Counted from the first letter of the stretch, positions 14,284 to 30,202 are shown. The stretch is DNA of 30,202 nt from an uncultured virus (IMG/VR IMGVR_UViG_3300035180_001708) (IMGVR_UViG_3300035180_001708); one strand, 5' to 3'. Made by a program: numbers and translations. The notes: generated from the letters alone by a model not told the origin.

Positions 14284-14284
14284 G

Positions 14285-14848: not shown

Positions 14849-14849
14849 T

Positions 14850-15236
14850 TTATACTCCGAAGAAAATGAAGGGAATTGAGTAATCAGTTCTCGACAAAGA
14901 GTTGTCTGAAGCGTCTAGTCCCATATAATTCAACGAGCTTGCTGTGAATTGTAGAGCGCCTAGTGTCTTACTCTGGAAGGTTTGGTCCAACTTATCTGCA
15001 ATGGTTGCTGCTGGCACTTGTCCTTGTCCGGACTTTGTATAGATTTGGAAAACAACCATACCTCGAATTTCTTGGTTATGGGTGTAGTCAATCAATTGCT
15101 TCCTTGGTAGAAGAATTGACACCTTTAGAAAAGGGGCCTCTGATTTTTTACCTACAAAGTCTTCAGGATAGATTGACTGTTGTAGTTGCAGACTGTTGAC
15201 CAGGTTGTAGACGTAAGTAATAATGTCACCATACAT
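14850..15236 (-). CDS. Tail terminator / tail completion protein
   Basis: Position before the tube gene. Motif GMVVFQIYTKSGQG..PAATIADKLD..F and C-terminal YSIPF. Confidence 0.7.
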   Translation of the reverse strand: MYGDIITYVYNLVNSLQLQQSIYPEDFVGKKSEAPFLKVSILLPRKQLIDYTHNQEIRGMVVFQIYTKSGQGQVPAATIADKLDQTFQSKTLGALQFTASSLNYMGLDASDNSLSRTDYSIPFIFFGV

Positions 15237-15571
15237 TACTCACCTTGCACTTCCAGGATAACAGCCCCCTCGTAGACCTCAATACACTTTACTCTGTAGG
15301 TAACAGAGTTCACAATAATCGAGTCATACAAGGAAGTTTCAAAGATAGCTTTTCTAAGTAGGAGCTTTTGGTAAAAAGATTTACCAGTTTCTAACTTGGT
15401 CTCAAGGACTAACGCCTTGGTGTTCACAGTGGTTTCCTGGACAACAGGTTCACCAAGAGCAAAGTTAAAGGCGTTAGAGCTAGAGTTTACAAGAGTTACT
15501 TCCACAGCGAGGTTGTCTAGCTGCTTGAATACTGTTTCTACTGCTGCTTCAATCGTAGTGCTAAGACTCAT
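15236..15571 (-). CDS. Head closure / head-tail adaptor
   Basis: 111 aa with a beta-rich C-terminus (DSIIVNSVTYRV). Gene order fits. Confidence 0.6.
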   Translation of the reverse strand: MSLSTTIEAAVETVFKQLDNLAVEVTLVNSSSNAFNFALGEPVVQETTVNTKALVLETKLETGKSFYQKLLLRKAIFETSLYDSIIVNSVTYRVKCIEVYEGAVILEVQGE

Positions 15572-16062
15572 CAGTTAGCCCTCCACCAGAGTAGCTCTGA
15601 GGAGTTGGTTGTGAGGGGTGCAATAAGATTAGAAACTTGCCTGGGTATCAGAGGGACACGGCCAGGGTCGCTTGTAGCATTAGTGTTTTTCAGTGTAATT
15701 GGACCGACAGTCAACTCGTCATAGTTCGCGTCATAGCCTTGAATAGCGCTAGGATAACGAAGATAGTGAAGTGCGAGAAAGGCGGTAGCCTTGGAGAGTC
15801 TGGTAGGAACTGTCAGGCTGTCGGTGGTTACAAGCAGGGCTAGACTTGAATCATAGTAGGTAAAAGAGGCACGAGGCCAGGACAAGACTTGAGTAGGCGA
15901 AACCGCGTACCCAAGCCAAGTCGTGTCGTCGAGGACTCTCGTCGCATTGATCAACGCCTGCTCTTGTTCAGCTACAGTTGCAGCGATCCATTCAGGGTCA
16001 GTGCCGATCCAGGGGGTGGCGTCAACCAAGAAAGTATTTGTAAAAAGAGTTAGCGTCATCAA
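15571..16062 (-). CDS. Head-tail connector protein
   Basis: Follows the capsid gene. Motif EQALINATRVLD...W.G......Q.LSWPR, then VP..L..A...LA and VGPI. Confidence 0.75.
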   Translation of the reverse strand: MMTLTLFTNTFLVDATPWIGTDPEWIAATVAEQEQALINATRVLDDTTWLGYAVSPTQVLSWPRASFTYYDSSLALLVTTDSLTVPTRLSKATAFLALHYLRYPSAIQGYDANYDELTVGPITLKNTNATSDPGRVPLIPRQVSNLIAPLTTNSSELLWWRAN

Positions 16063-16071
16063 TGAACCTCA

Positions 16072-17166
16072 TTAGCCGTGGAAGATGGGGAGAATTTTGA
16101 GGTTCAGCGGGTCAACAACACGCGTCCACGAAGCAGCGGTGCCCAGGAGAGCGTTCGTTGCGAAGGCGTTCGATGCACCTGCCCAGTTGTAGCCCATCGG
16201 GTGAGAGACGAAGCCATAACGGTACCACAGTTCAGTCGTACCACCACCACCATACGAGCGAGCATCACGTTGAATTTCAGTCGGAGTCGGAACCGCAACT
16301 TCATTGAACGAGATAGCACCCGGTTGGACCAGGAAGGTCGTCTTGGTGGAGTAGGTGTTGACGTTACCACCGGAGTTGTCACCTTGGTCTGCGCGCGACA
16401 CAACAAGACGGAACTTGCCGTTGAAGATCGTTTGGAAGTCCAGGTTACCGTCACGGATTTTGTCCAGGTCGATAAGGTTGGCTTCACGCAGGTCGGCGAG
16501 CACGGCGGGGGACGTAATCATGTACAGGTAGTCCGGTTCGTAGTCTTTCCAGAACATACCCATGGCGCGGAACAGGCGAGCACCGCGGTCAGCACCCTTG
16601 ACCGAGCTATCGATCAGTTTGCGAGCCGTGGGAGCAGACGCCACAACAGCACCGAATTCGCCAGCAGCGTTAAGGTCTACGAAGGCACCAACAGTAGCCG
16701 AGGGCACCGAGGTGAACGTAGTGATACCACCACCACTAGCAATCGACTTCTCGTACGCAGCAACACCCTTGAGCGTAGACAGAACAGCAGCGTGTTCGTC
16801 CTGAGCGCGGTTTTGAGCGAACTGGCCAGCCACGTAGGGAATACCTTCTTGGCGGCTGATGATCGATTGAATGTTTTCTTCCTGCACACCGAGCGTACGA
16901 ACGTTCTTGATGTAGTTCAGGATCGAGGTCGACATGGTCGAGTAGGACCCAGCAGTAGCCGTACCGATTACGGGCTGGTTAAAGACGCCCTGCACTGGTT
17001 TGAACCAGCGGAGCTGACCGATGAAGGATTCCCCGGTCGTGTCAATGCCGTTACCGGAAGTCACAAGGCCCGTGGAGTTAATGCGTTGCTCTTGCGTCCA
17101 GCGCTCTTGAGCGTAGGCAGAAATTGCGAGAGCCACGTTCTGAAAAAGAGTGTGGTTAATAGCCAT
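16072..17166 (-). CDS. Major capsid protein
   Basis: 364 aa, directly after the scaffold gene and before the connector. Strong codon bias. C-terminal GGGTTELWYRYGFVSHPMGYNWAG...W.R pattern of HK97-fold coat proteins. Confidence 0.85.
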   Translation of the reverse strand: MAINHTLFQNVALAISAYAQERWTQEQRINSTGLVTSGNGIDTTGESFIGQLRWFKPVQGVFNQPVIGTATAGSYSTMSTSILNYIKNVRTLGVQEENIQSIISRQEGIPYVAGQFAQNRAQDEHAAVLSTLKGVAAYEKSIASGGGITTFTSVPSATVGAFVDLNAAGEFGAVVASAPTARKLIDSSVKGADRGARLFRAMGMFWKDYEPDYLYMITSPAVLADLREANLIDLDKIRDGNLDFQTIFNGKFRLVVSRADQGDNSGGNVNTYSTKTTFLVQPGAISFNEVAVPTPTEIQRDARSYGGGGTTELWYRYGFVSHPMGYNWAGASNAFATNALLGTAASWTRVVDPLNLKILPIFHG

Positions 17167-17204
17167 AGTTTTTGTTGTACCTTATAGTGTGTTGACTGGT
17201 CGCC

Positions 17205-17873
17205 TTAATTACCAGACAAAGCAGTCTGTTTAGCCGCCCAGGCCAGTAGTTCTTCGGAACTCATTCCGATGAAAGACTTGGGAGCTTTATCTTTAGCAGT
17301 TGTCTTGTTAGTAGGGGCACCAGTACCTTGGTTATCCTTCGACTTAAGGAAGGTATCTCGAAACTCATCGTTCTTAGGAAGAGTTTTAATGTAGTCTTGA
17401 ATCGAGGCACCAGACTTGTGCACCCAGGCACCGTCAGTATCTTGAATCAGATCTTTTGCGATCAGGTCCGTAGCGCTGATCTTGGCAAAGTTAGTACGGA
17501 ATTCGAGCGAACTGAGAGCAGTCTCAAGTTCACGATCTCGCGTAACTGACACTAGTTTCGTTGAAGTCATTTTCAACTCTTCTTCTAGTTCAGCAATTCG
17601 CATGTTGGCAGCTTCAAGCTCTTTTCCATCGGCCTTGAGGGCAGCTCGCTGAACATCAGCAGCAGCTTTCTCAGCACGAACACGAGCCTTCGTCTCAGCT
17701 TCAAGCTTTTTACTCATCGCATCTTGGTTGGCCTTCATACGCGCCAGTTTGGCGTTAGCGGCTTCTTCAACCATGCGGTTAAATTCCTCGGAGCGTTCAC
17801 CACCAGTGGCGGCTTCTCCAGAATTCTCATTGTCAACCCCATCATCGAGGTTATCATCAGTGTCTTCAGTCAT
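17205..17873 (-). CDS. Capsid scaffolding protein
   Basis: Acidic N-terminus, long coiled coil, G.G linker and a short C-terminal helix (MSSEELLAWAA). Directly upstream of the capsid gene. Confidence 0.75.
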   Translation of the reverse strand: MTEDTDDNLDDGVDNENSGEAATGGERSEEFNRMVEEAANAKLARMKANQDAMSKKLEAETKARVRAEKAAADVQRAALKADGKELEAANMRIAELEEELKMTSTKLVSVTRDRELETALSSLEFRTNFAKISATDLIAKDLIQDTDGAWVHKSGASIQDYIKTLPKNDEFRDTFLKSKDNQGTGAPTNKTTAKDKAPKSFIGMSSEELLAWAAKQTALSGN

Positions 17874-17904
17874 TAGTGTTTCCTTTGCACAGCAATAGGT
17901 TAGG

Positions 17905-17956
17905 TTGGAAATTAAGGTACAACAATAATTTCAAGTCTAGAAGTAGGCGCTTCTAG
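17905..17956 (-). promoter_or_regulatory. Two tandem hairpins in the scaffold leader
   Basis: CTAGAAG/CTTCTAG stem (17937-17956) and GAAATTA/TAATTTC stem enclosing an 11-nt loop (17908-17932). Confidence 0.55.
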
Positions 17957-17957
17957 T

Positions 17958-18104
17958 TTATTTAGGAGCCTTGGGTGCTGCAGGCACTTCAAGACTGTCA
18001 ATAGTTTCGAACAGAACAGCCAACTCGTGAGAGTTAAGCAGGGTTTTGTAGTTGGTCTTAGACTTAAAGTCTTCAACCCAGGTTTTAAAGTCAGCTACCT
18101 TCAT
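17958..18104 (-). CDS. Small hypothetical protein, 48 aa (absent from the ORF track)
   Basis: MKVADFKTWVEDFKSKTNYKTLLNSHELAVLFETIDSLEVPAAPKAPK*, with ATGA coupling to the upstream gene. Confidence 0.6.
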   Translation of the reverse strand: MKVADFKTWVEDFKSKTNYKTLLNSHELAVLFETIDSLEVPAAPKAPK

Positions 18105-18250
18105 TTGTCAGCAGCATCGTTCGCAGCAACTCGAGTTTTGATATCATCGATAATTGCTTGAATGTGATCCCATTCTTGTTTGAAGTCGTCAATATGACTA
18201 ACCACAATCAGGAGATCTTCCCAGACAGATTTAAGTTTAGCAAAGTCCAT
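18101..18250 (-). CDS. Small hypothetical protein, 49 aa
   Basis: Start MDFAKLKSVW at 18250 (SD AAGGA), directly after the vWA stop. Confidence 0.6.
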   Translation of the reverse strand: MDFAKLKSVWEDLLIVVSHIDDFKQEWDHIQAIIDDIKTRVAANDAADK

Positions 18251-18251
18251 T

Positions 18252-18824
18252 TCAGGTTCCTTTTGTTGAGAGGTAAGTAGCAGTGTTAGCCGAGACAACT
18301 CCTGCCCTGGCTTTGTAGCCGCTAGAAGTCTTGTCAAAGGCAAAGAACTTAGCAATACCAATGTCATTGGCCATGGTTGAAACGTCAGCAACACTCAGGT
18401 CTGCACCAATGAAGCTAATATCCCAGCCAACAGCTGTTCGCTCACTGATTAACTTAGTCAACGTTCCGTGATTGAAGTTGATGCTTGAGTTTTCATAACC
18501 GTCTGTGTCGATGTACAGCAGCACATCTTCCTTAGGCCCAAAGTCGTAAAGTGCTTTACCCACAGCGTCATAGAGGGCAGTGCCACCAGACGGGGTATAG
18601 TTTTGTGGTGTCAGTAGTTGGGCTGACTTAATAGGAACACGGCTGTCGAGAACACGCACTACAGAGTTGAACAAGTAAGTAGTCACTACAAACTCAAAGT
18701 TAGTGTTGTCAGAAAGTTCTTTGTGACGAGACAAGAAGGCATTATAGGTACCTCGTACTCGGTCTGCCACAGACATCATCGATCCCGAAGAATCGAGGAC
18801 GCTAACAAGATTAATAGTCTTCAT
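18252..18824 (-). CDS. von Willebrand factor A (vWA) domain protein
   Basis: MIDAS motif LDSSGSM, plus PSGGTALYDAVG and TDGYENSS. SD AGGAG. Confidence 0.9.
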   Translation of the reverse strand: MKTINLVSVLDSSGSMMSVADRVRGTYNAFLSRHKELSDNTNFEFVVTTYLFNSVVRVLDSRVPIKSAQLLTPQNYTPSGGTALYDAVGKALYDFGPKEDVLLYIDTDGYENSSINFNHGTLTKLISERTAVGWDISFIGADLSVADVSTMANDIGIAKFFAFDKTSSGYKARAGVVSANTATYLSTKGT

Positions 18825-18847
18825 ATAGACTCCTAAAGGGTTATGGT

Positions 18848-18923
18848 TGGTTGCGCGGGAAGGACTTGCACCCTCGACCTGCAGAGTATGAGTCTGCCGA
18901 GCTACTTACTGCTCTACCGCGCT
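18848..18923 (-). tRNA. tRNA-Met(CAT), initiator-like, with encoded CCA
   Basis: AGCGCGG-TA-GAGC AGTAAGTA GCTC-G-GCAGA CTCATAC TCTGC-AGGTC-GAGGG TGCAAGT CCTTC-CCGCGCA-A-CCA. Full cloverleaf, 76 nt. Confidence 0.85.
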
Positions 18924-19256
18924 TCTCGTGTTGATCCAGTTCTTCACTTGTTCTTTTGAAACAATCAACCCATATCGATTCACCATTGTGACGATACGAG
19001 GAAAGACTCGTGACCAAAATTCATTTTCTTTACAGTGCTTAGTACTGGCTTCTACCGTCGAGTAGGATTGACCAGCCAGGTAAGCTCTTGCAAGATAGGT
19101 AGCTCTAGCTTCCCACCGGACAACAGTGACACGATGAAGGTGAAGACTGGTGAGCAGCTCAGTCTTACGTGCAGCACGAGCTCGTCTTTCTTCTATGCGA
19201 ATAATCGAGGCTTCAGCTGAAAGGCTTTTAGATTTAATTTTAAGTTCAATAGACAT
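18906..19256 (-). CDS. Hypothetical basic phage protein (116 aa)
   Basis: Strong SD (AGGAG). MSIELKIKSKSLSAEASIIR...HLHRVTVVRWEARATYLARAYL. The stop codon lies inside the tRNA gene. Confidence 0.75.
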   Translation of the reverse strand: MSIELKIKSKSLSAEASIIRIEERRARAARKTELLTSLHLHRVTVVRWEARATYLARAYLAGQSYSTVEASTKHCKENEFWSRVFPRIVTMVNRYGLIVSKEQVKNWINTRSAVEQ

Positions 19257-19276
19257 TTGATTCTCCTAAGATTGAG

Positions 19277-19327
19277 TTATGTGTGGACATAAACTCGAGT
19301 CTAGGGCGGTTTATCAATCTAGAACAT
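19277..19327 (-). promoter_or_regulatory. Candidate leader mini-ORF with two in-frame amber codons
   Basis: TAAGGA-TCTTTA-ATG TTC TAG ATT GAT AAA CCG CCC TAG ACT CGA GTT TAT GTC CAC ACA TAA. Confidence 0.4.
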
Positions 19328-19340
19328 TAAAGATCCTTAT

Positions 19341-19417
19341 TGGTGTACCTGGCCTGAATCGAACAGACACCCCCATGGGTTAGGGGCCACGGGTTCTACC
19401 TTAGATGATGCAGGAAC
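19341..19417 (-). tRNA. Degenerate tRNA or tRNA-like element with an 8-nt anticodon loop CCCCTAAC
   Basis: Acceptor GTTCCTG/CAGGTAC-A-CCA with one mismatch, canonical T arm GTCTG TTCGATT CAGGC, anticodon stem CCGTGG/CCATGG, weak D arm. Confidence 0.55.
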
Positions 19418-19426
19418 GGGGATGAG

Positions 19427-19487
19427 AAAAAAAAAGAAAAGAGGGAAGAGGAGAATCCACCCGGAGGTAGACTCTCACCCTTCTTCT
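19427..19487 (-). terminator. Probable intrinsic terminator
   Basis: Imperfect hairpin (GAGAGTCTACC-TCCG-GGTGGATTCTC on the minus strand) followed by a long T-rich tract, just after the stop at 19494. Confidence 0.55.
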
Positions 19488-19493
19488 TTATAG

Positions 19494-19721
19494 CTAAGAG
19501 GTGCCGAGCAGTGAAGCCTTGGCAAAAGATAGCAGGTAGTAGACCTCGGGAACAGTCATTGACGTAGACAGCAGCTTCAGGTAGCCATCTTCACCTTCAA
19601 CAAGAACAACAGCACTGACAGCTGAGCTTCGCAGGTCTTCGAGGTCCTTGATCAATTTATCAAAGGATTGAGTTTCAGTTTCTTCTTCCGTTTTATCAAA
19701 CAGATTAACGACTTTAACCAC
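19494..19721 (-). CDS. Hypothetical protein (75 aa)
   Basis: GTG start overlapping the upstream gene end. KVVNLF...acidic, small-phage-protein pattern. Confidence 0.6.
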   Translation of the reverse strand: MVKVVNLFDKTEEETETQSFDKLIKDLEDLRSSAVSAVVLVEGEDGYLKLLSTSMTVPEVYYLLSFAKASLLGTS

Positions 19722-20208
19722 TAAGTTTTTCCTTTTCAGTAATACTGAAGACGGGGATATCCCGCTTTACATGTTTAGTGGGCAACAACCAGCCAAGTGT
19801 TCCATCAAGAGCATCAGGCAAGAAAGAAGCCAGGGGTGTTACAGCTGTCCAGATAACTTCTCCGTAGTAAGACCCAGGAGGAAGGTTAGAACAGCGAGGA
19901 TCGTCAGGAGCCCACCAGGCTAGTGTTTTACCAACCAGCGGTCCTTTTTGTTGTTTGTATTCGAAGGGGCCACCGTGTGCTTCACAGGCAACTTCATTTG
20001 AGTCTACTGACCGTATAATGACAGCATACTGAATGTCGGTGGCTACTTTGATGTCACGAGTAAACACCAGGTTAACAGGCTGGCCAACCTCAGCACTAAC
20101 TAGTTGTGGTTGGTTGGGGTCAAACCAGAGCCATTCCATGGGAATCGAGGCTCCTACTAGGTACAGCCCTAGAACACAGGGTAAAATCCAAGAAGAAAAA
20201 CTCGTCAA
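19714..20208 (-). CDS. Exported or membrane-anchored hypothetical protein
   Basis: N-terminal hydrophobic segment, a Cys pair (VACEA...PRCSNLPPGSY) and ATGA coupling. Confidence 0.7.
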   Translation of the reverse strand: MTSFSSWILPCVLGLYLVGASIPMEWLWFDPNQPQLVSAEVGQPVNLVFTRDIKVATDIQYAVIIRSVDSNEVACEAHGGPFEYKQQKGPLVGKTLAWWAPDDPRCSNLPPGSYYGEVIWTAVTPLASFLPDALDGTLGWLLPTKHVKRDIPVFSITEKEKLSG

Positions 20209-20531
20209 TGTGGGGCTCCTTGTAGCCAGGAGACTACCCTGGACCAGTTCATTACTAGAACAACGACAAAGGCCAGGATAACCCCGATAGTTTTAGTTAC
20301 ACTTACAAAACCCTCCACAGCCTTCCAGGCCGTAGACATTCTTACCATGGTGTCAGCATTACCGTCGAAGGTTTCCACAAGAGCAATCAGTGGTCCTTTG
20401 TGTTCAATAATTTCTAGAATAGACCGAGACTGCTCAGGGGTGAAGACTACTGTGCCTGGTTGAAGCAGCTTTTTAATTGCCTCAACAGACTCTTGAAGGT
20501 GCTCGAGGCTGGTTGGTTCGTTGTTACTCAT
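20205..20531 (-). CDS. Hypothetical protein with a C-terminal transmembrane helix
   Basis: Start MSNNEP at 20531 (SD AAGGA). Helical N-terminus and TM segment TIGVILAFVVVLVMNW. Confidence 0.7.
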   Translation of the reverse strand: MSNNEPTSLEHLQESVEAIKKLLQPGTVVFTPEQSRSILEIIEHKGPLIALVETFDGNADTMVRMSTAWKAVEGFVSVTKTIGVILAFVVVLVMNWSRVVSWLQGAPH

Positions 20532-20579
20532 AGGATTCCTTTGGGTAGTCACCTAGTAGGTAACATTGATAGTTAGACC

Positions 20580-21047
20580 TCAAGCACGCAAGGACATTGC
20601 TGAGGTAAAGAGAGCATCGGCAGCAGCGGCATCTAGACCGAGTACATAGGCTAGCAAATCAACTAGCTCTGACACTCGTGGGATTGTTACAGCTGTGTCA
20701 ATGATTTGGCGCATTGCCCAGGTGCAGTCAGGATCATCACGGAAGGCTAGAATCTTAGCCCACTTTGACTCTCCAAGGGCAACAATCAACTGCCAACGTG
20801 TGCAGGTCATACTGGCCCGCTGTTCTTCAATAAACCACGACTGTGTCCCACACAAGACTGCCTCAACCCTGGCGTACGATTCCGGGTCATCTACCCATCG
20901 ACTACCATCCCATCGGGTGCCATAGCCTTCACCTTTGTCGAGCATTTCATCTGGGATTGGTAAAAAGCTTTGATCTGGGGGTGGAGTATTATCTTGACAG
21001 GATGCCGCAAAATCCATTGTCTTAGTCATATAGAATTTAATCATCAT
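20580..21047 (-). CDS. Putative fibre/spike assembly chaperone
   Basis: Coupled to the spike gene. RWDGSRWV motif and C-terminal LGLDAAAADALFTSA pattern of fibre-adjacent proteins. Confidence 0.6.
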   Translation of the reverse strand: MMIKFYMTKTMDFAASCQDNTPPPDQSFLPIPDEMLDKGEGYGTRWDGSRWVDDPESYARVEAVLCGTQSWFIEEQRASMTCTRWQLIVALGESKWAKILAFRDDPDCTWAMRQIIDTAVTIPRVSELVDLLAYVLGLDAAAADALFTSAMSLRA

Positions 21048-23737
21048 GCTACCCTGAAATAAACCATGTTAGTTGCTGCTTGAGAAGCACCTTCAGCATT
21101 AGAAAACCCCCAAGAAGCTGGTGCAGGCGTTGCATACGTAATTGTTCGTCGTAGTAGGTTCCTATTTTGGTTATTTGACGTAAGGCCGGTAGTCAGTCCT
21201 TGGATTGGTTGACGAGCAACTCCATAAATTAAAAGTGAAGAAGAATTAGTACGAGTTCCAATCCAATAGGTTTTACCTGCTACAAAATTGTATGCTTGTG
21301 CTACAAATCTATCGCCAGTAACAGAACCGTCAATATCCCCAGTCTCAAATAGTTTATTAGCTGGTCTACCTTGTGCGTCAGAATCGTATATTGCAACTTT
21401 GGCAAGACCACCCACTACTGCTGTTGCAATATTTAACAGAACTTGGTCACAAGTAAAATCAATACCAAAGATATGAGCATACATATTAAACTGGTCTGCA
21501 GTTGCAGATGGTGAGCCATAAGTATTAGTTCCACCTAGTGGTAATGTATGGATATAAGTTCCAGAAGGCGGCACCATAAATGGCAAGATTTTTTGTCCAA
21601 AAACAGGAGAAGTTACCCCGCTTTCACGAGCCTTGAGTCTCCCATCAGGAGATAGCCATTGGTCTCCGTTTGCAGGGCTGGCAGGATCACTACTGAGCGC
21701 GGTAAAACCTAGTTCGGAAGTAAAGGTTTTCTTACCCGCCACAGTTTGAGCAGTTGTAAGGTCGACAGCAGACGACGAAACGCTGCTTGTGTCCAGAATT
21801 TTGTACCAGGACATAGATGCAGTGTCAAGAACGTTGCCTCTTTTCCAGGTAGTAGCCCAACGAGTACCACCATTAGGCCCCCGTTCGACAACAACCAGGG
21901 CTGCAGCAAGTTGGTTACTGGTGTTAGCGTCTGTAACCCTGGTCCAGGATCCTGCGTTAACAGTGTACAGGCCATTTTGGCTAGCTGTAGTCTGACCAAC
22001 CAGCAATACTCGGTCACCGAGGGTAGTTGTGATGCCATCTACGGCTGCAGTACCACCAGTTGTAATGTCAATGTTTGTGGTTGACAACAACCTTGCGGGT
22101 TGTTTGAACCCGGACAGGGGCATGTAGGTCAGGTCGGCTGTCAGAGGCATGGCGTTGACGATACCATAACCAGCCAGAGTAGTTGGCAGCTCCGTGAGGC
22201 TACTGAAGCTAGGGTGTTCGGTCAGATAAGTTCCAGCAACAGCCAGCTCTGTGTTTACATAGTAAGTGACACTAGGACTTGCGAGGTTAGTTCCTACCTT
22301 GACAGTAGACCGACCATCGTAGGCAATCATTGTTGTGCAGTTCTTGGCTACGTTACCGGAGATAACTGTGCCAGTATCGCCAGCAGTAGTTGACGTGGTA
22401 CCACTTAGGTCAATGGCAATTGACTGACCGTCAAAGCTGTTGCCTGTAATAGTGACCCCTGTACTGGTGCCTGTGGCGTTGCCCATCCGGACACCCGATC
22501 GAGTTCCTGTACCCTTGAAGGTATTGTCAGCAATTACAGCTGTAGACACACCGTCATAGCCAATTTGCCCAATGCCAAAACCACCCTCGAGCGACCCTTG
22601 GTTGTTGTTTTCAAAGTGGTTTGAAACAACCTTGACTTGGCTTGCACCTTGGTCGAGAGTCAATCCCTCGAGTCCGTTTAACCGGAAGGTATTACCTATA
22701 CAGGTCAACCCGATCACCCCTGCGTTAGACAACCCAACACCATCGTTAGAGTCAAACAGAGTGTTAGTCACCATCAGTCGGGTAGTGGTCAGACCTGATG
22801 TAGCGTCATAGCCAGTAGCAATGCCATTCTTGGCACTACCTGTCAACCGAGAGTTGCGAACTCGAGCGTCGGCCCCATACACAAACAGCAGAGTAGTATC
22901 AGTGGTGTTTACAGCCTTCTGGCCGTCAATTGTTGGTCCGTCCAGGCTAAAGTAAGCCCCATAGACACGAAGCAAGTTGTTAGCAGTGTTAGTGCCTTTG
23001 CGGAAAACTCCGTTGCCAACCAGAGCTACATTGTCTTGACCAACATCAACGTTGATTTGAGTATCACAACGCCAGATGCCTCCTGACGTGTCAATCGACC
23101 CACCTCCGAGGCTAGCAACATAGTTCACAGCTTGTTTCACTCGCGTACTACAAGTAGTAGTGCCTGTAGGGTCTGCGCCCCAGTGCAGCAAGTGGACAGC
23201 AAAGTCAGGAACCCAACCTGGCAAGTCACTAATAGCTGTGCCTGTGCCTAGATATCGGTAGACTTGACCACCGGCTCGCATAACTAGCCCTACTGCAGGA
23301 GTTCGTCCTGTAGCCCAGGTAACAAAATCAGAGCGAGTAGCAAAGTCTTGTCGTTCCAGAGTTGTTCTTGCAGCTACTGGATCGGTGATACCATAGCCTG
23401 CTAGAGTAGTTGGTCGACCCGTGACCCGAGCCCAGGTTGGAGCCACAGTAGCGTTGATAATCGTGTAGTCTAGAGACCAGACAGTACCGCCATCAGAGAC
23501 AACCACATCACCCTTGTCACCATCTGCCACACCACCTGCACCACCCGCAGGGGTAACCCAGGTTCCGTCGTCTCGTAGGTAGGTCAGCCCACTTCCACCA
23601 GAAGCGGGGACCAGCCCGTCAGCAGTACTTGTAAAGCGACCATAGGACGGTACGGTTTCAATGACAACTTCATCACCAGTCGTGTCGTTTAACACAACTG
23701 ACTCTTGAGTATCATTAACATAGACAACTTCTGTCAT
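21044..23737 (-). CDS. Spike/fibre protein with a right-handed beta-helix (pectin-lyase-like, candidate depolymerase)
   Basis: WGADPTG...VKQAVN..GGG.I cap followed by beta-helix rungs (GNTFRLN, SNHFENN, DNTFKG, GNSFDG). Also fibre motifs PTTLAGYGI, GDRVLLVGQTTASQNGLY and QTVAGKKTF. Confidence 0.8.
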   Translation of the reverse strand: MTEVVYVNDTQESVVLNDTTGDEVVIETVPSYGRFTSTADGLVPASGGSGLTYLRDDGTWVTPAGGAGGVADGDKGDVVVSDGGTVWSLDYTIINATVAPTWARVTGRPTTLAGYGITDPVAARTTLERQDFATRSDFVTWATGRTPAVGLVMRAGGQVYRYLGTGTAISDLPGWVPDFAVHLLHWGADPTGTTTCSTRVKQAVNYVASLGGGSIDTSGGIWRCDTQINVDVGQDNVALVGNGVFRKGTNTANNLLRVYGAYFSLDGPTIDGQKAVNTTDTTLLFVYGADARVRNSRLTGSAKNGIATGYDATSGLTTTRLMVTNTLFDSNDGVGLSNAGVIGLTCIGNTFRLNGLEGLTLDQGASQVKVVSNHFENNNQGSLEGGFGIGQIGYDGVSTAVIADNTFKGTGTRSGVRMGNATGTSTGVTITGNSFDGQSIAIDLSGTTSTTAGDTGTVISGNVAKNCTTMIAYDGRSTVKVGTNLASPSVTYYVNTELAVAGTYLTEHPSFSSLTELPTTLAGYGIVNAMPLTADLTYMPLSGFKQPARLLSTTNIDITTGGTAAVDGITTTLGDRVLLVGQTTASQNGLYTVNAGSWTRVTDANTSNQLAAALVVVERGPNGGTRWATTWKRGNVLDTASMSWYKILDTSSVSSSAVDLTTAQTVAGKKTFTSELGFTALSSDPASPANGDQWLSPDGRLKARESGVTSPVFGQKILPFMVPPSGTYIHTLPLGGTNTYGSPSATADQFNMYAHIFGIDFTCDQVLLNIATAVVGGLAKVAIYDSDAQGRPANKLFETGDIDGSVTGDRFVAQAYNFVAGKTYWIGTRTNSSSLLIYGVARQPIQGLTTGLTSNNQNRNLLRRTITYATPAPASWGFSNAEGASQAATNMVYFRVA

Positions 23738-24036
23738 TTAAGGTAAACTCCAATAGGACCGTAGCCACGACCATCGGACAAGATTACCCGAAACTGAACT
23801 TGAGCTCCTGTGCCTGATGGCCAGTTGCCCGACCAAGGACAGGTGATCCGCAACCGTCCGTTGGCTGCATCAGCAACGATCACAGTCATTGACGATTGTA
23901 GACTTGTTGGAGACACCTCGAACAGGGTCGCAGTCAACCCTACCAGCGAGATAGGGTTTCCTGTTACCTTGTCACGAATTAAAAGGTCTCGAGTAAAGTT
24001 TGCCCCTCGAGTGAGACGGTAGTAAACAATAGACAT
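23734..24036 (-). CDS. Small beta-rich virion adaptor-like protein
   Basis: LTRGANF...NPISLVG.TA...DAANGRLRI pattern of small Ig-like proteins that precede fibre genes. ATGA coupling to the spike gene. Confidence 0.55.
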   Translation of the reverse strand: MSIVYYRLTRGANFTRDLLIRDKVTGNPISLVGLTATLFEVSPTSLQSSMTVIVADAANGRLRITCPWSGNWPSGTGAQVQFRVILSDGRGYGPIGVYLK

Positions 24037-24053
24037 TGAGACCTTTCTTAGTC

Positions 24054-27000
24054 TTACGGACCAAAACCATAGCGATCGAAGCCAGGTTTCAGTGGAGCCA
24101 GAATTTCTTCGGGAGTAAAGCCTTTGTCGAAAAACCCAAGTCGTTCAGCTTCGGCTAGGTACGAGTTGTACAATTCGCGGGGCAACCCGTCAGCCAACAG
24201 CGCATCCATTGTCTTGCGAATGTTGTTAGACTCACGAGCACGAGCATAGACCCGGAACATGGCGTTGATGCCCTCGGGCAACTCGTTGATGTTCTGGAAG
24301 ATAGCGTCGTGAATAGTCGACGTACCCATGTTGAGTTTTCGACCCTCGAGGTGGTAGCCACGAACCAGGGACGCGTCAAGAGCATGGTTGCCGTTAACGC
24401 CGAAGCCCAGTCGAACATCACCGATTTCGGCCTTGCCTAGTAGTTTGCCATCTTCCGCGTCCATCTGATAGATGTTACGGACGTAGCGACGAGACGCTGG
24501 GTCATAGAACCGAATCTCTTGTTGGATCTTTGGTCGATAGTCTTGATACAGCTTCTTGCCGTCAAAGGTAACCCACGGAATACGAACTTTCTTGGTTGTA
24601 CGAGCAAAGTCTGCCCCCACACGCTTCCAGAAGTCGATGTAGGTTTGAGTCACCGGAGCACGCTCGGCTAGTTTTTCAGACATCAGCTTAGCAATTTCAC
24701 GGAAGTGATCGGGACCTAGAGCTACGTTGCGATTGTTCGAGTACTTACGAACTAAGTCAGCCACTGCGGGGTGAATTTCTTCAGCCTCGGCGAGAATAGC
24801 TGACGCCTGAGCAGCGTCTCCTGTGTTGATGATCTCGAGCAACTCTTTCTTTATAGCTAAGAGGTCTACCTTAGTTTCGAGAGCGCCAAGAGCCTCGGCT
24901 TCCTTTGCTTTCTTGTCAATTTCCTTCGTGATAGCCAGAAATTCAGCCCGAGTGGTAACAAGAATGTCTTTTTTACGCAACACCTTTGCTAGCTCTAGAG
25001 CCACACGAGCAGTTTGCCCTGTTTGTCCAGCACCATAGAAGGCAATCATGACCTGGTACTTAGACGCCTTTGACAGGTCTTCCCAGGTCAACTTCAATCC
25101 TAGATCGTCCATTAGTTGCTGGAAGCGGGGGTCAGCAACCACGTCTTGAGCAACGAGGTCATAGATCCGCATCTTACGCGTTGTTGGCAACACATTGCTC
25201 GTCAACGCTGCCAGTCGGTTTCCCGTTGACAACGAGATGACCTGCAACCCGCTAGCACTAGCGTCAGCTTCACCCATCAACTTAGTCTTGTAGCCCGCTA
25301 GGCTGACTGCATCGAACCGACCACCTGTAGCCTGGTGGATACGATAGTACTCGAGACTAAATCTAGCAATCTTGGCAACCTCTTCCCCGTCGATGGATTG
25401 GATAAAGGGGTCGTCAAGGAACTCACGCAGTCGACGATCTCGTTGAGTAGTCTCGGAGATCAACCGACCAACACGAAGAATTGCCTCCTCGTTGTCTCGG
25501 AAAATCTGCAACCGCCCAGCGTCAGTCAAGGCCTCTGTGGCAGGCCCGATTACAGCAGCGAGCTGAATACGAATCTGATGCAGCCCCTCGGGTGTCATGG
25601 CTGTAGCTTCGGCTGAGTTCAGGAAAGGGCGAACAACCTCTCCGCCAGTAGGAGTGAGGTAGCCATTGTAGTATACACGACCCCGTCCATCAATCCTAGC
25701 CATTGCACGGAAACGACGACCTGTGGCGCGATAGTAGCGAAGGGCTTCCATGAGTCCATAACCTTGGTCACCACGTCTAATAATCTCCTCTCTAAAGGTG
25801 TTCAGCTCGTCGTAGTGAGCGGCTGCACCGCGATTGTCTTTGAAGCGGACAAGATCGTCCATGAAACTTGTAAACTCAGGGTCTACTTCATATTCCAGTG
25901 ACATGGTATGGTTTAACATGTCCGAGAAGTCACCGTCAATTTGCTTTGCATCAAAGTTAGCCTGAGCTGACCGGGTAATTAGGCTGATGCCTGAGTCTTT
26001 CCCCCGTGAGTTAACATAGGTCTTTCGACCAGGAACAACAACGTAGCGGTTCTCTGGGCGGTCGATGCCGAAGCGATTAGCTAGCTCTAGACGACGATTG
26101 TTTGACTGCAGTCGTAGCATGTCTGGGTCAAGAACTTGAACTTCACGAGAAACAGTGTCTTTCCAGGCTCCTGACGCTCGGTTAGTTTCAAGGTCGATGA
26201 CAGCTCGTCGAGTTACCCCTCGGCTGTTGATACGGATCAACCCCTGGGATCGCATGTACTCAAGGATCTTAGACCCTTCTTCATGATAGTCTTGCAGGCT
26301 ATGTCCTAGGTAAGGAACAATGTCACCCCAGGAATCAGCAACTTCACGACCGAGACTAATTGCCAGCGAGTCGTAGTCAGTGGTTCGGCCCTCTGCAACA
26401 ATGCGGAACATACGAGCGAGGTTAGACACAGACCGACCCTCTAGATCACGAAGGTTAGTCTTCAAGAAGTCACGCCACAAGTGGAAACGAAGAAACTCCA
26501 GGTCGATGATCGATTGATACTTTTCCTTGATTGTGCGAGTAGCAAAGTCCATGAACCCTTCTTCGTACACAGCTCTAAGGTCCTTGTACCAACCTGGTGT
26601 AAAGAAGCCCTTGATCTCATCGAGTATAATCTTCTTGATTGCAGGAGGCGTCTTGCCATAACGAGTATAGAATTCGAGGGGGTTGTTACGATAGAACACA
26701 GACCGAATAGTACGCTTGAAGAAAGAGTCCTTGACTCGGTCAACAATAGACTTAGGTTTATCAGGCTGGTCAAAAAAGTACGCCTTCCAGGGCGATCGGC
26801 CTGTGTAGTACATGCGACGAGCAAGAGCAGTACCCTGGTCAGCTGTCCAGTCCTGAGCATACAACTCATAAGACCGACGGTTAGCGAGCAAGTCTTCGAT
26901 CGAGATAGTCTCACCACCAATTTGTACACTAGGTTGTGATGGATCACCACGGAACCCAAGGAACAGGCTGTCACGAGCCCGAGACCGGCGGTCCAACAGT

Positions 27001-28568
27001 CGAGAAACGTTGACCACAGAGTAGTTAGTCTCTGCTCGGAAGGTAGCCTGGAAGTCCTCCCAGGGAACAGGAGTCTTCTGGTAGCGTTCAAACACCACAC
27101 GAAGAGTTTCTGTGACAACAGACTGTTGATTGACTGACACACGATCGGTCAGCGACTCAACAAAGTTCTCAATGAAGGCTTTTTGTCGACGATCAAGCAG
27201 CTTAGACTGCTGCATGTAGTCGAGTCGTTCACGATACAGAGTAAAGTCAGGGTTGTAGTAGTACGAAGAGCGAACTTCTCCCGTGAAGGGATCGAAGGTA
27301 GAGTTACGAGGGTCAAACTCATTAGTTGACGCAAAGCGAACTCCCCGTTTACCCGCAAGAGACGTACCCCGGTAGTCCACAAGAGACAGGGGTTGTCCTG
27401 CATTGGTAGTATCTGTGATAATCATCTTTGTCAGCTCGTCTGCTGCACGGGTTGACCGTACTAGCTGAAACGGGCGAGACACAGACACTAGACCGTCAAG
27501 AGTAGGAGCGACTGTAGCTGTACCCTCTAGCCCGAAGAACGTAGCAAGGTTGTCCTTGACACGCAACACAGACAGGCTAATCGGATTGCCACGAGCTGTG
27601 AAGAAGTCAGACATTGACAAGGTACCACGCTCAAACAGTCCTACTCGTTCCTCTGTTCCTAGGTGAGACAGCTTAGTAGACATGGACTGACGACGAAGCC
27701 AGTCAGTAAAGGACTCCTTGGCAGGGGCGAGACCGTTCAGTCGGGTCTCGTCAACAGCCTCAAGAGCAGTATGGTTCAACCAGGGAGACTGTACCGAGCG
27801 CAACACAGACTTAGCCTTGACAGTCAACACTAGGGTAGAGCGACAGTTCCAGTGCAGAGGGGGTACTACCTTGAGGTTGTCAGGAGTCTGAACCAACCCG
27901 TCTGTAGTTGCACAAATAGAGCTAGTGCGAGAGTCAAGGATAGCGGTGAAGACAAGCCCAGCAATCAGGTCACTGTTAGCCTGAGCTACACGACGCTTTA
28001 TGAGTGACTCTGCCTGAGTAAAGTTAGTGACCACCAAGGTCTTGGCCTGAGCCTCGGTCAACCGACTAGTACGGATAATGTCGTCGATCAACTCACGTTC
28101 GGTGGTGCCTGCCACAATGCCACGCCGTACTCTGGCGTTGATACGAGTCAGCTCGTCCGACCCTGCACGGTTAAGGTTCTCGAACAAAGTACCGTGCTCA
28201 GTGGACGTGTTAGACAACCGAAGAGGGGTTCGGGTAATGTCACGAGCTAACTCACCACGATTAACCGACTGGACCTTGAAGAAGTCACGAACAGAGCGAG
28301 ACAGACTGTTAACTTGAAAGTCAAGTTCAGCCCCCACAAAGTCGTCAATTGCTGACCGACCAATGCCATAAAGCTGTTGTACGTGGCGAGTAACTTCACG
28401 CTCTAGGTCGAGAGACAGCGAAGGGGGTTTAGTACGAAACAGTCGAGACAAGAAGCCACGGTGGGCTGCAGCTTCTCGTTCGATCAAAAGTTTTGCTGCG
28501 TCTTGGTAGCGTCTCGTCAGGATAAGATGTTCAACTTGTCGGTCAAACAAGTCCTGGTTAATAGACAT
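24054..28568 (-). CDS. MuF (SPP1 gp7-type head morphogenesis) domain fused to a T7-like single-subunit DNA-directed RNA polymerase
   Basis: MuF signature FTAILDSRTSSIC...DG...PPLHWNCRS (aa ~205-244). RNAP motifs DGRGRVYY (aa 960), DASASGLQ (D1102), KYQVMIAFYG (K1170/Y1178), NGNHALD (H1395) and IHD (D1421), in T7 order within one uninterrupted ORF. Confidence 0.92.
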   Translation of the reverse strand: MSINQDLFDRQVEHLILTRRYQDAAKLLIEREAAAHRGFLSRLFRTKPPSLSLDLEREVTRHVQQLYGIGRSAIDDFVGAELDFQVNSLSRSVRDFFKVQSVNRGELARDITRTPLRLSNTSTEHGTLFENLNRAGSDELTRINARVRRGIVAGTTERELIDDIIRTSRLTEAQAKTLVVTNFTQAESLIKRRVAQANSDLIAGLVFTAILDSRTSSICATTDGLVQTPDNLKVVPPLHWNCRSTLVLTVKAKSVLRSVQSPWLNHTALEAVDETRLNGLAPAKESFTDWLRRQSMSTKLSHLGTEERVGLFERGTLSMSDFFTARGNPISLSVLRVKDNLATFFGLEGTATVAPTLDGLVSVSRPFQLVRSTRAADELTKMIITDTTNAGQPLSLVDYRGTSLAGKRGVRFASTNEFDPRNSTFDPFTGEVRSSYYYNPDFTLYRERLDYMQQSKLLDRRQKAFIENFVESLTDRVSVNQQSVVTETLRVVFERYQKTPVPWEDFQATFRAETNYSVVNVSRLLDRRSRARDSLFLGFRGDPSQPSVQIGGETISIEDLLANRRSYELYAQDWTADQGTALARRMYYTGRSPWKAYFFDQPDKPKSIVDRVKDSFFKRTIRSVFYRNNPLEFYTRYGKTPPAIKKIILDEIKGFFTPGWYKDLRAVYEEGFMDFATRTIKEKYQSIIDLEFLRFHLWRDFLKTNLRDLEGRSVSNLARMFRIVAEGRTTDYDSLAISLGREVADSWGDIVPYLGHSLQDYHEEGSKILEYMRSQGLIRINSRGVTRRAVIDLETNRASGAWKDTVSREVQVLDPDMLRLQSNNRRLELANRFGIDRPENRYVVVPGRKTYVNSRGKDSGISLITRSAQANFDAKQIDGDFSDMLNHTMSLEYEVDPEFTSFMDDLVRFKDNRGAAAHYDELNTFREEIIRRGDQGYGLMEALRYYRATGRRFRAMARIDGRGRVYYNGYLTPTGGEVVRPFLNSAEATAMTPEGLHQIRIQLAAVIGPATEALTDAGRLQIFRDNEEAILRVGRLISETTQRDRRLREFLDDPFIQSIDGEEVAKIARFSLEYYRIHQATGGRFDAVSLAGYKTKLMGEADASASGLQVISLSTGNRLAALTSNVLPTTRKMRIYDLVAQDVVADPRFQQLMDDLGLKLTWEDLSKASKYQVMIAFYGAGQTGQTARVALELAKVLRKKDILVTTRAEFLAITKEIDKKAKEAEALGALETKVDLLAIKKELLEIINTGDAAQASAILAEAEEIHPAVADLVRKYSNNRNVALGPDHFREIAKLMSEKLAERAPVTQTYIDFWKRVGADFARTTKKVRIPWVTFDGKKLYQDYRPKIQQEIRFYDPASRRYVRNIYQMDAEDGKLLGKAEIGDVRLGFGVNGNHALDASLVRGYHLEGRKLNMGTSTIHDAIFQNINELPEGINAMFRVYARARESNNIRKTMDALLADGLPRELYNSYLAEAERLGFFDKGFTPEEILAPLKPGFDRYGFGP

Positions 28569-28578
28569 AGGTGGTTCC

Positions 28579-29868
28579 TTATGCGTAGATGAGATTCAAT
28601 CCTAGGATGTCTGCGGCAGCAATGGCTGTAGTATCAGTGTCAACAACTCCGCCTGAGATACCAAAGGCGATACCTGTACCGAGATACAACCCAATCGATG
28701 AGAAGTCTCGAATAAACATAGAGTTAGGGGGCAACACAAAGGTCAATACAGGGCTATCAGTGCCAACAGTAGGAGCAGACGCCTTGTTGTAGATCTTTAG
28801 GTAACGACGAGTAGCCGACGCGTTGTAACAGTCGATAGTGTACAGCCGACCAGCGCTAGCCTTTACAGAGTTGGGGTTAGTTGTAGCCAACGATGAAAAC
28901 AAGCTGAAGGTCGACGTCAACCCACCAGCTACAGCTTCAACTCGAAGCGAGGCAGGAGCCAGGGCGGACGCAGTTACCTGAACAGGCAGACTGTCACTAA
29001 GGTCTGAACGACCAGAGTAGCGGCTAAAGTCAACCGACATACGGTAGTCGTCCTGGACGCTGATAGCATGAACTCGCCAGCTGGTAGAGCTCGCGGGAGC
29101 AGTTGACCCGTTGATACAGCGAATACGAATCTTGTACAGCTTGGTCGGGTCAGGAATACCACCAGTACGTTTACCACCAACAAAACTAGTAGTAGCCGCG
29201 TCAACAAACTTACTAGTAAACACAACCTGGTCAGTGTCAGCCACAATTTCATACATCCAGCTGTGGATGAAGTCAGGGGTTGTACCCGTGGCGGCAGTGG
29301 TACCAAAGTTGAAGTTCGACGAGACGTACTCGCTAATGCCATAGCCACGAGTCACGTAGTTAGCAACAGCCACAGCAGTACCTGTCCAGCGATAACCAAA
29401 CAGGTTAGTTGCGTTCTCAGTCACAGTTCCAGGAAAAGTAGTGTCTGTCTCCACAGCACCGGTAGAGTCAACAGAGACCAACTCTACGTGGAAGGTGGTG
29501 TTGGCAATGCGCTGAGACGCTGACACAGCAACACTGAACTTCAATGGCATGGTAAACGTGTCAACTGACAGCAGCACGGTCTCAGACCCGGCAGTAGTTC
29601 CTGCAGCAATGTTCAGGTAACGGCTAGAGTTAGCTGTACCGTTAACAGTCACTGCTTGGCCTGCTCCCGTTGCAACAGTTACCCACCGAGCAGGGTCAAG
29701 CGTCATGAAGGCTTCACGATACGAGACCCGGCTGGTGGTGGTCATGGACTCGACATCACTGGCCAGTACAACAGGCAACGAGTCTGCTGCAAGCTTCTGA
29801 CCAGTCGAGTCGGCCTTGGCTGCTGTCGTAAACGCTCCATTTGCGTCCTTGATTAGAATTGTAGACAT
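28579..29868 (-). CDS. Putative virion structural protein (Thr/Ala/Ser-rich, beta-rich)
   Basis: 429 aa with SD AAGGAG. The C-terminal module VKASAGRLY.I..YN.....RYLKIYNKASAPTVGTD.P resembles phage structural/decoration proteins. Confidence 0.6.
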   Translation of the reverse strand: MSTILIKDANGAFTTAAKADSTGQKLAADSLPVVLASDVESMTTTSRVSYREAFMTLDPARWVTVATGAGQAVTVNGTANSSRYLNIAAGTTAGSETVLLSVDTFTMPLKFSVAVSASQRIANTTFHVELVSVDSTGAVETDTTFPGTVTENATNLFGYRWTGTAVAVANYVTRGYGISEYVSSNFNFGTTAATGTTPDFIHSWMYEIVADTDQVVFTSKFVDAATTSFVGGKRTGGIPDPTKLYKIRIRCINGSTAPASSTSWRVHAISVQDDYRMSVDFSRYSGRSDLSDSLPVQVTASALAPASLRVEAVAGGLTSTFSLFSSLATTNPNSVKASAGRLYTIDCYNASATRRYLKIYNKASAPTVGTDSPVLTFVLPPNSMFIRDFSSIGLYLGTGIAFGISGGVVDTDTTAIAAADILGLNLIYA

Positions 29869-30072
29869 TTATACTCCTTGCCCAACGTCCGGGTAACAGG
29901 TAGCGGTTGCCACCGGAATGTTAGCCGCCTTAGCGGACTCTAGTTGCGTTGAGAGCAGCAGTTGACAGTCAGTTAGAGACAGCAGCTCGGGGTTAATTGA
30001 TACATTACAAGTAGTTGCCGAGTCACCTGTGCACCACAGAAAAACAGCTAAAAACAGAGGGGTCATGGTCAT
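29869..30072 (-). CDS. Small exported Cys-rich hypothetical protein
   Basis: Hydrophobic N-terminus, four Cys, SD AGGAG, and ATGA coupling to the upstream gene. Confidence 0.6.
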   Translation of the reverse strand: MTMTPLFLAVFLWCTGDSATTCNVSINPELLSLTDCQLLLSTQLESAKAANIPVATATCYPDVGQGV

Positions 30073-30202
30073 TGATTCTCCTGAATTGACACTCTTTCGT
30101 TGGCAGGAAGCAGGGCGTCTTGTTGAATTTCGGCCACCCCGTCATCATCGGAGTAGTCGGAAGGTATGATATCGTGTTGCTTAGCAATTGCGAGCCACAC
30201 AG
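30069..30202 (-). CDS. C-terminus of a probable portal protein, truncated at the window end
   Basis: Manual translation: ...VWLAIAKQHDIIPSDYSDDDGVAEIQQDALLPANERVSIQENQ*. The acidic tail resembles siphovirus portal C-termini, and the position upstream of the MuF gene fits. Confidence 0.5.
   Translation of the reverse strand, partial: VWLAIAKQHDIIPSDYSDDDGVAEIQQDALLPANERVSIQENQ

Follow-up and report, generated by a model that had tools for sequence, protein, structure and literature searches.

A MuF-type phage head protein fused to a T7-type RNA polymerase: a candidate for delivery with the virion DNA

Virion-carried RNA polymerases (RNAPs) are known from few phage lineages, namely the N4-like, jumbo and crAss-like phages and the Thermus phage P23-45, and each of them has been informative on transcription and on the exit of large proteins from the capsid. 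T7 RNAP is an early, non-virion enzyme. The accessible portions of a 2017 survey confine N4-like virion RNAPs to N4-like phages (PMC5512222). In the P23-45 study, as far as its text is accessible, the virion polymerase transcribes the pre-early genes, including the gene for a non-virion polymerase, and the authors propose for virion polymerases fused to large proteins that DNA translocation is coupled to transcription (PMC10770324). For phage SPP1 it is reported, in the accessible part of the source, that gp6 directs the MuF protein gp7 into the interior of the procapsid (PMC6316719). Here we analyze a 30,202 nucleotide (nt) stretch of DNA from an uncultured virus (IMGVR_UViG_3300035180_001708; the whole stretch is called the window below), in which a single gene of the head module encodes a MuF / SPP1 gp7-like protein fused to a T7-type RNAP.

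The fusion gene and its parts are listed in Table 1. A first-pass annotation, made from the sequence of the window by itself, had described it as one 1504 amino acid (aa) open reading frame (ORF) with a MuF signature toward the N-terminus and T7-family motifs in order toward the C-terminus. The uninterrupted frame was confirmed, and translation places all six of the motifs it named where it had put them (PPLHWNCRS is aa 236-244; for the others see Table 1). The two domains that it expected were both found by Pfam above the curated cut-offs, as follows: Phage_Mu_F (PF04233) covers aa 142-246 (E 5.5e-10, 40.4 bits, cut-off 29.6) and RNA_pol (PF00940) covers aa 1091-1422 (E 3.9e-6, 26.4 bits, cut-off 22). 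PHROGs assigns aa 74-342 to head morphogenesis family phrog_241 (E 7.5e-47) and aa 955-1195 to RNA polymerase family phrog_414 (E 2.2e-18), with a weaker match to the N4-type phrog_2166 (E 6e-5), and Pfam RPOL_N does not match the fusion protein. In an alignment of 37 relatives that range from 71 to 28% identity, the MuF residues L211, D212, T215, C219, P237, H239, C242, R243 and S244 are invariant, as are the polymerase residues D960, R962, R964 and Y966 (palm block) and D1102, K1170, Y1178, G1179, H1395, H1420 and D1421; because both the catalytic and the MuF positions are invariant in this set, the domain findings go beyond chance. A model of aa 1-560 (predicted local distance difference test score, pLDDT, 87.8) places four long helices and an alpha/beta core in aa 1-345; a middle domain follows, which is bounded by low-confidence linkers at aa 346-355 and 538-541 and has its own invariant residues in the 37 relatives (G401, K407, P440, L458, N480, R490, R495 and W503). 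The N-terminal ~345 residues are thereby identified, on sequence evidence, as a minor head protein of the MuF / SPP1 gp7 type. A complete single-subunit RNAP of T7 type makes up the C-terminal ~950 residues, and the conserved middle domain links the two.

A single-sequence search with the fusion protein gave no match among PDB sequences. A profile built from the 37 relatives, searched against the PDB, matched T7 RNAP in colinear blocks (E 1.7e-9), with mitochondrial polymerases next. The model of aa 480-1504, built from 40 sequences (pLDDT 82.5, predicted template-modelling score 0.77), retrieved T7 RNAP as the top Foldseek match (E 2.1e-20; 74 matches at E <= 0.001). The annotation had suggested superposition on T7 RNAP and on the N4 mini-vRNAP; in VIA-align 2, T7 RNAP gave Z 30.6 (root-mean-square deviation 4.4, 556 aligned residues, model residues 77-1023 on T7 35-882), the yeast mitochondrial polymerase Z 28.4, the human mitochondrial polymerase Z about 27, and the N4 mini-vRNAP Z 17.1 at 9% identity. 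As modelled, the module is therefore closer to T7 RNAP and the mitochondrial polymerases than to the virion RNAP of N4. Because the alignment covers nearly the whole of T7 RNAP, the module (aa ~556-1504) is considered complete and to include the counterpart of the T7 N-terminal domain, parts of which have low confidence in the model. Motifs A, B and C align with those of T7 and of ordinary phage RNAPs; the specificity-loop region is strongly conserved across the fusion family and the C-terminal end is conserved too, and relative to T7-like enzymes the fingers carry an extra helical insertion of ~100 residues. The motif B tyrosine of T7 RNAP is tied to ribonucleotide selection, and its retention fits an enzyme that selects ribonucleotides. 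With its active site intact, the fused polymerase is apparently active.

Homologues of the same architecture, for which the annotation had proposed a search, proved to be numerous. A word-indexed search recovered 95 protein clusters of the fusion family, 66 of which carry both Pfam domains as precomputed; they bear only the names "SPP1 gp7 family putative phage head morphogenesis protein" or "hypothetical protein". At least 786 IMG/VR viral-contig stretches encode a relative. Among annotated phages, DSS3_PM1 and DSS3_VP1 (two records) are the only ones to match at >= 80% coverage (3 of 852 matching records, 40% identity), and their product is annotated solely as a minor head or head morphogenesis protein. 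These are lytic roseophages of siphovirus morphotype in which deoxyuridine (dU) replaces deoxythymidine, according to the accessible text of PMC8323127. An exhaustive search of 1.84 billion sequences with the polymerase module as the only query gave 119 representatives, in every long one of which the module begins at residue ~550 or later; ordinary 811-838 aa T7-like RNAPs appeared in this search only at E 2.6e-4 to 8.5e-4. No unfused member of the fused-polymerase clade was recognized among the 119 matches, the shorter of which are indistinguishable from fragments. MuF was found in all ten long variants scanned, in one of them below the cut-off. In members P0109 (1821 aa), P0111 (1890 aa) and P0116 (2073 aa), which are longer by 300-550 residues, the match to the polymerase comes in two or three separate pieces; MuF and RNA_pol were the only families that Pfam identified in them, and the additional residues are possibly inteins or added domains. 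A full-text search found no publication that describes a MuF-RNAP fusion (subscription journals and supplements lay outside it).

Relatives that reach only 78% of the length were considered as truncated variants, a reading we rejected because they are first exons, the frame resuming past an insert of ~836 nt. In record L009 the frame breaks off behind aa 1174 and continues with aa 1175 about 836 nt further on (insert L009:3478-4313, with an unassigned 209-aa ORF), and in EBPR siphovirus 1, which matches the fusion in three pieces, an insert at the same point (~8791-9625) holds an HNH/NUMOD1 endonuclease ORF. Each insert aligns from end to end with the Rfam group I intron model, at scores (31.6 and 40.5 bits) below the gathering score of 50. 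The insertion point lies inside motif B, as is expected for a conserved functional site, since homing introns favour such sites; its counterpart in the window is 25046|25047, where the gene is uninterrupted.

The above comparisons identify the two ends of the protein; is the polymerase then carried in the virion? Four lines of evidence favour packaging and ejection: the fusion is the only MuF protein in its relatives, a second polymerase is present, the gene lies in the head transcription unit, and the polymerase has no cysteine. In the records of five relatives (two complete uncultured genomes, the complete DSS3_VP1 and two partial records) the fusion gave the only PF04233 match in each, and PF06152 (Phage_min_cap2) was found in none of the five; being the sole MuF protein there, the fusion must do whatever MuF does at the portal. 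The fusion protein of the window has only two cysteines, C219 and C242, both of them invariant MuF residues, and none in aa 243-1504. Its polymerase module is cysteine-free in 35 of the 37 relatives and its middle domain in all 37, whereas the free, ordinary polymerases of four relatives have 7-8 cysteines in ~730 aa. The corresponding numbers for N4 are 0 in the 3500 aa of gp50 and 13 in the 673 aa of RNAPII. Cysteine is likewise scarce (0.40%) in the remaining proteins of the window, most of which are structural. A fused polymerase free of cysteine has the pattern of the injected N4 gp50, unlike that of free polymerases, and this favours packaging.

The second polymerase is an ordinary T7-like RNAP of ~730 aa (E 1e-75 to 1e-82), present in five of eight whole records, including all three complete genomes. 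It is 16% identical to the fused module over 481 columns, and because the identity is so low the two polymerases appear to be old, separate lineages; a recent duplication of the phage's own polymerase was rejected at this value. The complete genome G003, in which all 98 ORFs but one lie on one strand (by our own simple gene call), has the order small ORFs, ordinary polymerase, replication and nucleotide genes (among them one of the dCMP-deaminase family), terminase, PhoH, portal, fusion, capsid and tail. The gap G003 26006-26306 contains a hairpin with a 6-bp stem and a 7-nt loop, about 130 nt upstream of the ordinary polymerase gene; the close relative G006 has this hairpin too, in the orthologous gap, and it could serve as a terminator or be recognized by one of the phage polymerases.

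Genomes that range from 38 to 55% GC share a conserved promoter-like motif of ~20 nt, which is strand-specific and has CGYTAAAG as its core (Table 1). The motif lies mostly at gene boundaries, often right after terminator-like hairpins; of the six DSS3_VP1 copies, two are intergenic, three fall <= 10 nt from the end of an ORF and the sixth is intragenic (by crude gene calls). The DSS3_VP1 copy at 19325 directly precedes the portal-tRNA-fusion group, and the G003 fusion sits between the copies at 52497 and 69418. We take the motif to resemble T7-group promoters, and because of this resemblance the ordinary polymerase is likely to read it. From its gene position and from the motif in relatives, the fusion shares the head transcription unit and so appears to be made with the head proteins.

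How does this protein compare with the described systems? N4 gp50, like the fusion, holds a T7-family right-hand polymerase within a larger protein (the carriage in the virion being demonstrated for N4 and inferred here); N4, like the relatives of the window, encodes a second, ordinary phage polymerase elsewhere (RNAPII, gp15/gp16); and in both cases the carried enzyme is without cysteine and the free one has many. It differs in that gp50 has its own N-terminal ejection and C-terminal encapsidation regions within 3500 aa and no MuF, and N4 (Schitoviridae) is a podovirus whereas the window is a siphovirus-type genome. Membership in the N4 family was rejected on the fold (Z 17.1 against 30.6 for T7), on the PHROGs matches (phrog_2166 at 6e-5 against phrog_414 at 2.2e-18) and on the architecture, 1504 aa with an N-terminal MuF. 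P23-45, as described in the accessible text (PMC10770324), is like our proposal in that a long-tailed phage fuses its polymerase (gp96) to a structural protein that leaves the virion. Its polymerases are two-barrel, cellular-type enzymes and its carrier is the tape measure protein of the tail, whereas the enzyme here is T7-type and the carrier is a portal-associated MuF protein of the head; its relay was demonstrated by experiment, and the one proposed below is inferred. The two-barrel virion RNAP class (P23-45 gp96, crAss-like, jumbo) was rejected for the fusion because the module has a T7-type right-hand fold instead of a double-psi beta-barrel. The annotation's framing of a candidate co-ejected RNAP in a siphovirus agrees with the siphovirus-type tail genes, and has a published precedent in P23-45 for a virion RNAP fused to a structural protein.

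MuF toxins and polyvalent proteins, in the accessible parts of two sources (PMC5576092, PMC5512222), likewise join an N-terminal MuF to an enzymatic C-terminal domain and are encoded near the portal, and for them as for the fusion the delivery of cargo with the DNA is a proposal. They differ in that their cargo is a toxin or a host-modifying enzyme, frequently accompanied by an immunity gene, and in being found mainly in temperate phages; those parts name no RNAP among the MuF cargoes. A MuF polymorphic toxin was rejected here, since the C-terminal part is a polymerase and the 100-aa ORF downstream has no family match. SPP1 gp7 and Mu gpF share PF04233 and a gene position near the portal with the N-terminus of the fusion and differ in being short proteins without a polymerase. 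T7 and mitochondrial RNAPs share the fold over nearly the whole enzyme, motifs A, B and C and the motif B tyrosine; they differ in sequence (~16% identity) and in that the polymerase here is cysteine-free and lies behind a stretch of ~555 head-protein residues. The jumbo phage AR9 has dU-DNA and both virion and non-virion multisubunit polymerases (PMC5312081, PMC9209446, in their accessible parts); it is thus like the cultured family members DSS3_VP1 and DSS3_PM1 in its dU-DNA and in having two phage polymerases, one of them in AR9 virion-borne, and unlike them a giant myovirus with cellular-type multisubunit enzymes. By this analogy, dU-substituted DNA may be tied to self-sufficient transcription, as in AR9-type phages.

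We propose the following sequence of events. The fusion protein would be made late, in the transcription unit of the portal and capsid genes, and its MuF part would bind the portal, so that one or a few copies of the polymerase enter the procapsid, after the SPP1 gp6-gp7 paradigm. In the next infection the protein would exit together with the DNA, probably in an unfolded state and perhaps cut beforehand at one of the linkers. The ejected polymerase would transcribe the first-entering genes, which in the relatives include that of the ordinary T7-like polymerase, and the latter would then read the repeated T7-group-like promoter before the replication and structural blocks, so that the whole would form a relay of two polymerases, as in N4 and P23-45. 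That the fused polymerase is packaged in the virion we hold to be highly probable, and the full model of delivery plus early transcription is one we favour with reasonable but limited confidence. The mechanism put forward by the first-pass annotation (made late, loaded at the portal by MuF and delivered with the DNA) is thus partly supported.

Several observations weigh against this relay. Portal binding is argued from family membership alone, because no solved structure resembles the MuF part: Foldseek gave 0 matches to the N-terminal half at E <= 0.001, and VIA-align gave generic helical bundles only (best Z 12.0). A 2006 study of SPP1 gp7 reportedly did not detect its co-ejection in vitro and found that it anchored the released DNA to the particle; if this holds, a plain MuF protein may stay behind. 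Records G001, G005 and G007 of the window's own clade, which are 32-65% complete and were searched whole, have the fusion only and no second polymerase. The coding strand of the window has no convincing copy of the family motif at <= 4 mismatches or of the clade motif at <= 5; the motif scans gave two antisense, chance-like matches only, repeat and pattern searches were equally without a convincing promoter, and nothing turned up that could be an early promoter or a recognition element of the fused polymerase. We found no virion proteomic, transcript or enzyme-activity data for any family member, and the accessible parts of the published DSS3_VP1 work mention no RNAP. As late as 2023, whether cargo fused to MuF is delivered was described as unsettled (PMC10083569, accessible part). 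Finally, the ordinary polymerase gene of G003 is preceded, at a distance of 148 nt, by a sigma-70-like site, TTGAAC-16-TATAAT, which would fit a start by host RNAP.

This last site is also what would be expected if the polymerase were not delivered at all and acted solely in the cell that makes it, for instance on late genes or in replication, the host RNAP starting each infection; the fusion to MuF would then be a matter of co-expression, or the halves would be cut apart and MuF alone would enter the head. The two linkers could be the cleavage sites, and the reported behaviour of gp7 points the same way. However, G006 has lost the sigma-70-like hexamers and retained the hairpin, and the sigma-70-like sites in window 12000-30202 are not above shuffle level (19 versus 15.2 +/- 4.9). 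A cytoplasmic enzyme is not expected to lose all of its cysteines while its free paralogue keeps 7-8, a loss that matches N4 gp50, and the fusion is unbroken across at least 95 clusters with no unfused clade member recognized. Nor could the fused polymerase switch the late genes on, because it is itself made late, in the transcription unit of the portal and capsid, which is too late to switch that unit on. We therefore regard a polymerase that stays in the producing cell as unlikely. It is similarly improbable, in our judgment, that the polymerase is packaged and yet is not a general early transcriptase, and that it is held at the portal, engages the DNA end and serves mainly to pull or route the genome into the cell, as has been suggested for enzymes of the P23-45 and N4 types, or to prime replication. 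Such a role has all of the packaging evidence in common with the relay, overlaps it and can hardly be told from it on sequence grounds. It would agree with the transcription-coupled translocation proposed by the P23-45 authors, with SPP1 particles lacking gp7 being only ~25% infectious (PMC6316719, accessible part) and with our searches finding no early promoter class; on the other side, the fused module keeps the counterparts of the T7 promoter-recognition elements and its specificity-loop region is conserved, which fits sequence-specific initiation.

Could the polymerase part be an inactive relic that is merely bulk inside the head? Its low Pfam RNA_pol score and the single-sequence PDB search without a match would be in keeping with this, but none of the catalytic residues tested varies in any of the 37 relatives, even at 28% identity, the fold corresponds to that of T7 RNAP in its full extent, and the motif B tyrosine and the conserved C-terminal end are kept, so that decay is very improbable. 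An assembly or gene-calling artefact that joined neighbouring genes has next to no probability and is refuted by the recurrence of the fusion: the same open frame is found in two independently sequenced cultured phages as well as in the clusters and viral-contig stretches enumerated above, and the conserved middle domain bridges both halves.

The order of genes in the window is portal 3' end, 67-aa ORF, 429-aa ORF, fusion, ~6 kb of mostly unassigned ORFs with a tRNA-Met, scaffold, major head protein, connector and tail genes, a 1816-aa tape measure protein, tail fibre and endolysin, all on the minus strand; with a tape measure protein and no sheath gene in the window, the tail is of siphovirus type. 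The portal end is 48% identical to aa 481-511 of a relative's portal (E 2.7e-7), and the 522-aa portal of the near-identical record L007 matches phrog_145 (E 3.3e-41). The syntenic order is PhoH-portal-(2 ORFs)-fusion, and the portal directly adjoins the fusion in DSS3_VP1 (with a tRNA-Asn between them) and in G003. The architecture, the reading of the active site and the head-module setting given by the annotation are all borne out. Its statement that the gene is near the portal and upstream of scaffold and capsid is right as to the module; the gene directly upstream (28579-29868) is, however, not the portal, and the scaffold is about 6 kb away, with about nine ORFs and the tRNA-Met between.

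Table 1. Positions of the fusion gene, its parts and neighbouring genes in the window, and of the promoter-like motif in related records
Feature	Position	Strand	Remarks
MuF-RNA polymerase fusion gene	24054..28568	-	one 1504-aa ORF, ATG start, no internal stop; stop codon 24054-24056
MuF / SPP1 gp7-like head-morphogenesis part, aa 1-345	27534..28568	-	Pfam, PHROGs, conservation, model
Pfam Phage_Mu_F core, aa 142-246	27831-28145	-	
Conserved middle domain, aa ~356-537	26958..27503	-	conservation and model; family unassigned
T7-type single-subunit RNA polymerase module, aa ~556-1504	24057..26903	-	profile, model, structure alignment
DGRGRVYY, aa 960-967	25668..25691	-	aligned to T7 palm block, residues 412-469
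Motif A DASASG, aa 1102-1107	25248..25265	-	D1102 aligned with T7 motif A aspartate
Motif B K1170...Y1178-G1179 (K-x7-YG, aa 1170-1179)	25032..25061	-	
NGNHALD (aa 1392-1398, H1395) and IHD motif C (aa 1419-1421)	24306..24395	-	aligned to T7 residues 722-843
429-aa ORF between portal and fusion	28579..29868	-	without Pfam or PHROG match
67-aa ORF	29869..30072	-	without family match
Portal gene 3' end, last ~44 codons	about 30069..30202	-	remainder outside the window
Head scaffolding protein	17205..17873	-	
Major head protein	16072..17166	-	
Promoter-like motif, G003	7543, 28513, 51875, 52497, 69418		all intergenic
Promoter-like motif, G002	24370, 24416, 41805, 74180(-)		two subclasses, differing downstream of the core
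Promoter-like motif, DSS3_VP1	2332, 7407, 19325, 29395, 45925, 73992		
Promoter-like motif, L008, L068 and L009	L008:11901; L068:6324; L009:5309, 5611		just after the fusion gene

A protein atlas search with the 429-aa neighbour gave only clusters of viral hypothetical proteins, and its slot is variable, being occupied in G005 by ORFs of 132 and 1656 aa. The ~6 kb between fusion and scaffold (window 17874-24036) are largely missing from G005, G003 and DSS3_VP1. They encode an 897-aa protein (21044-23737) with a right-handed beta-helix region at aa 285-435 and, at aa ~543-670, a domain common to head-decoration or virion proteins. Within the head module, a tRNA-Met (anticodon CAT) lies at 18848-18923 on the minus strand (ARAGORN; Rfam 54.3 bits), and the gap 19257-19493 has a tRNA-like 3' end that neither tRNA program called. 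Two adjacent major-tail-protein-like paralogues, 13702-14283 and 14285-14848 (minus strand), both belong to phrog_158, and a 31-nt repeat common to them (14123, 14679) suggests tandem duplication. The lysis cassette (~300-1327, minus strand) consists of the endolysin gene (854-1327) followed by overlapping small ORFs at 496-693 and 369-590, the second of which starts with a lipoprotein-type signal ending in cysteine (MKLLVFLTVLPLLLSAC); the pair resembles overlapped spanins. In the same region there is a sigma-70-like TTGACT-18-TATAAT (~789-818), and a hairpin at ~305-365, with A and T runs on its flanks, lies opposite an ORF on the plus strand (2-310) that converges on it.

What is new here is the combination of a MuF carrier with a T7-type polymerase; a virion polymerase fused to a structural protein and MuF fused to other cargo were known already. 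If the proposed packaging and delivery are true, this family would represent a further independent solution to carrying a polymerase in the virion, with the first carried T7-type enzyme outside the N4 group and the first to have MuF as its carrier. It bears on the question left open in 2023, whether MuF-fused cargo is really packaged and injected, and because a polymerase is useful only inside the cell, it is a cleaner test case than a toxin. The cultured member DSS3_VP1, which grows on the model marine bacterium Ruegeria pomeroyi DSS-3, makes the idea directly testable. More tentatively, and in our judgment less probably than not, the whole phage group (Naomviridae and kin, including the phage of the window), which is distributed worldwide, may be independent of host RNAP from the first minute of infection, the ejection of a MuF-tethered T7-type polymerase with the DNA being its obligatory first step; the family would in that case be the first demonstration of MuF as a general protein-delivery module of phage heads.

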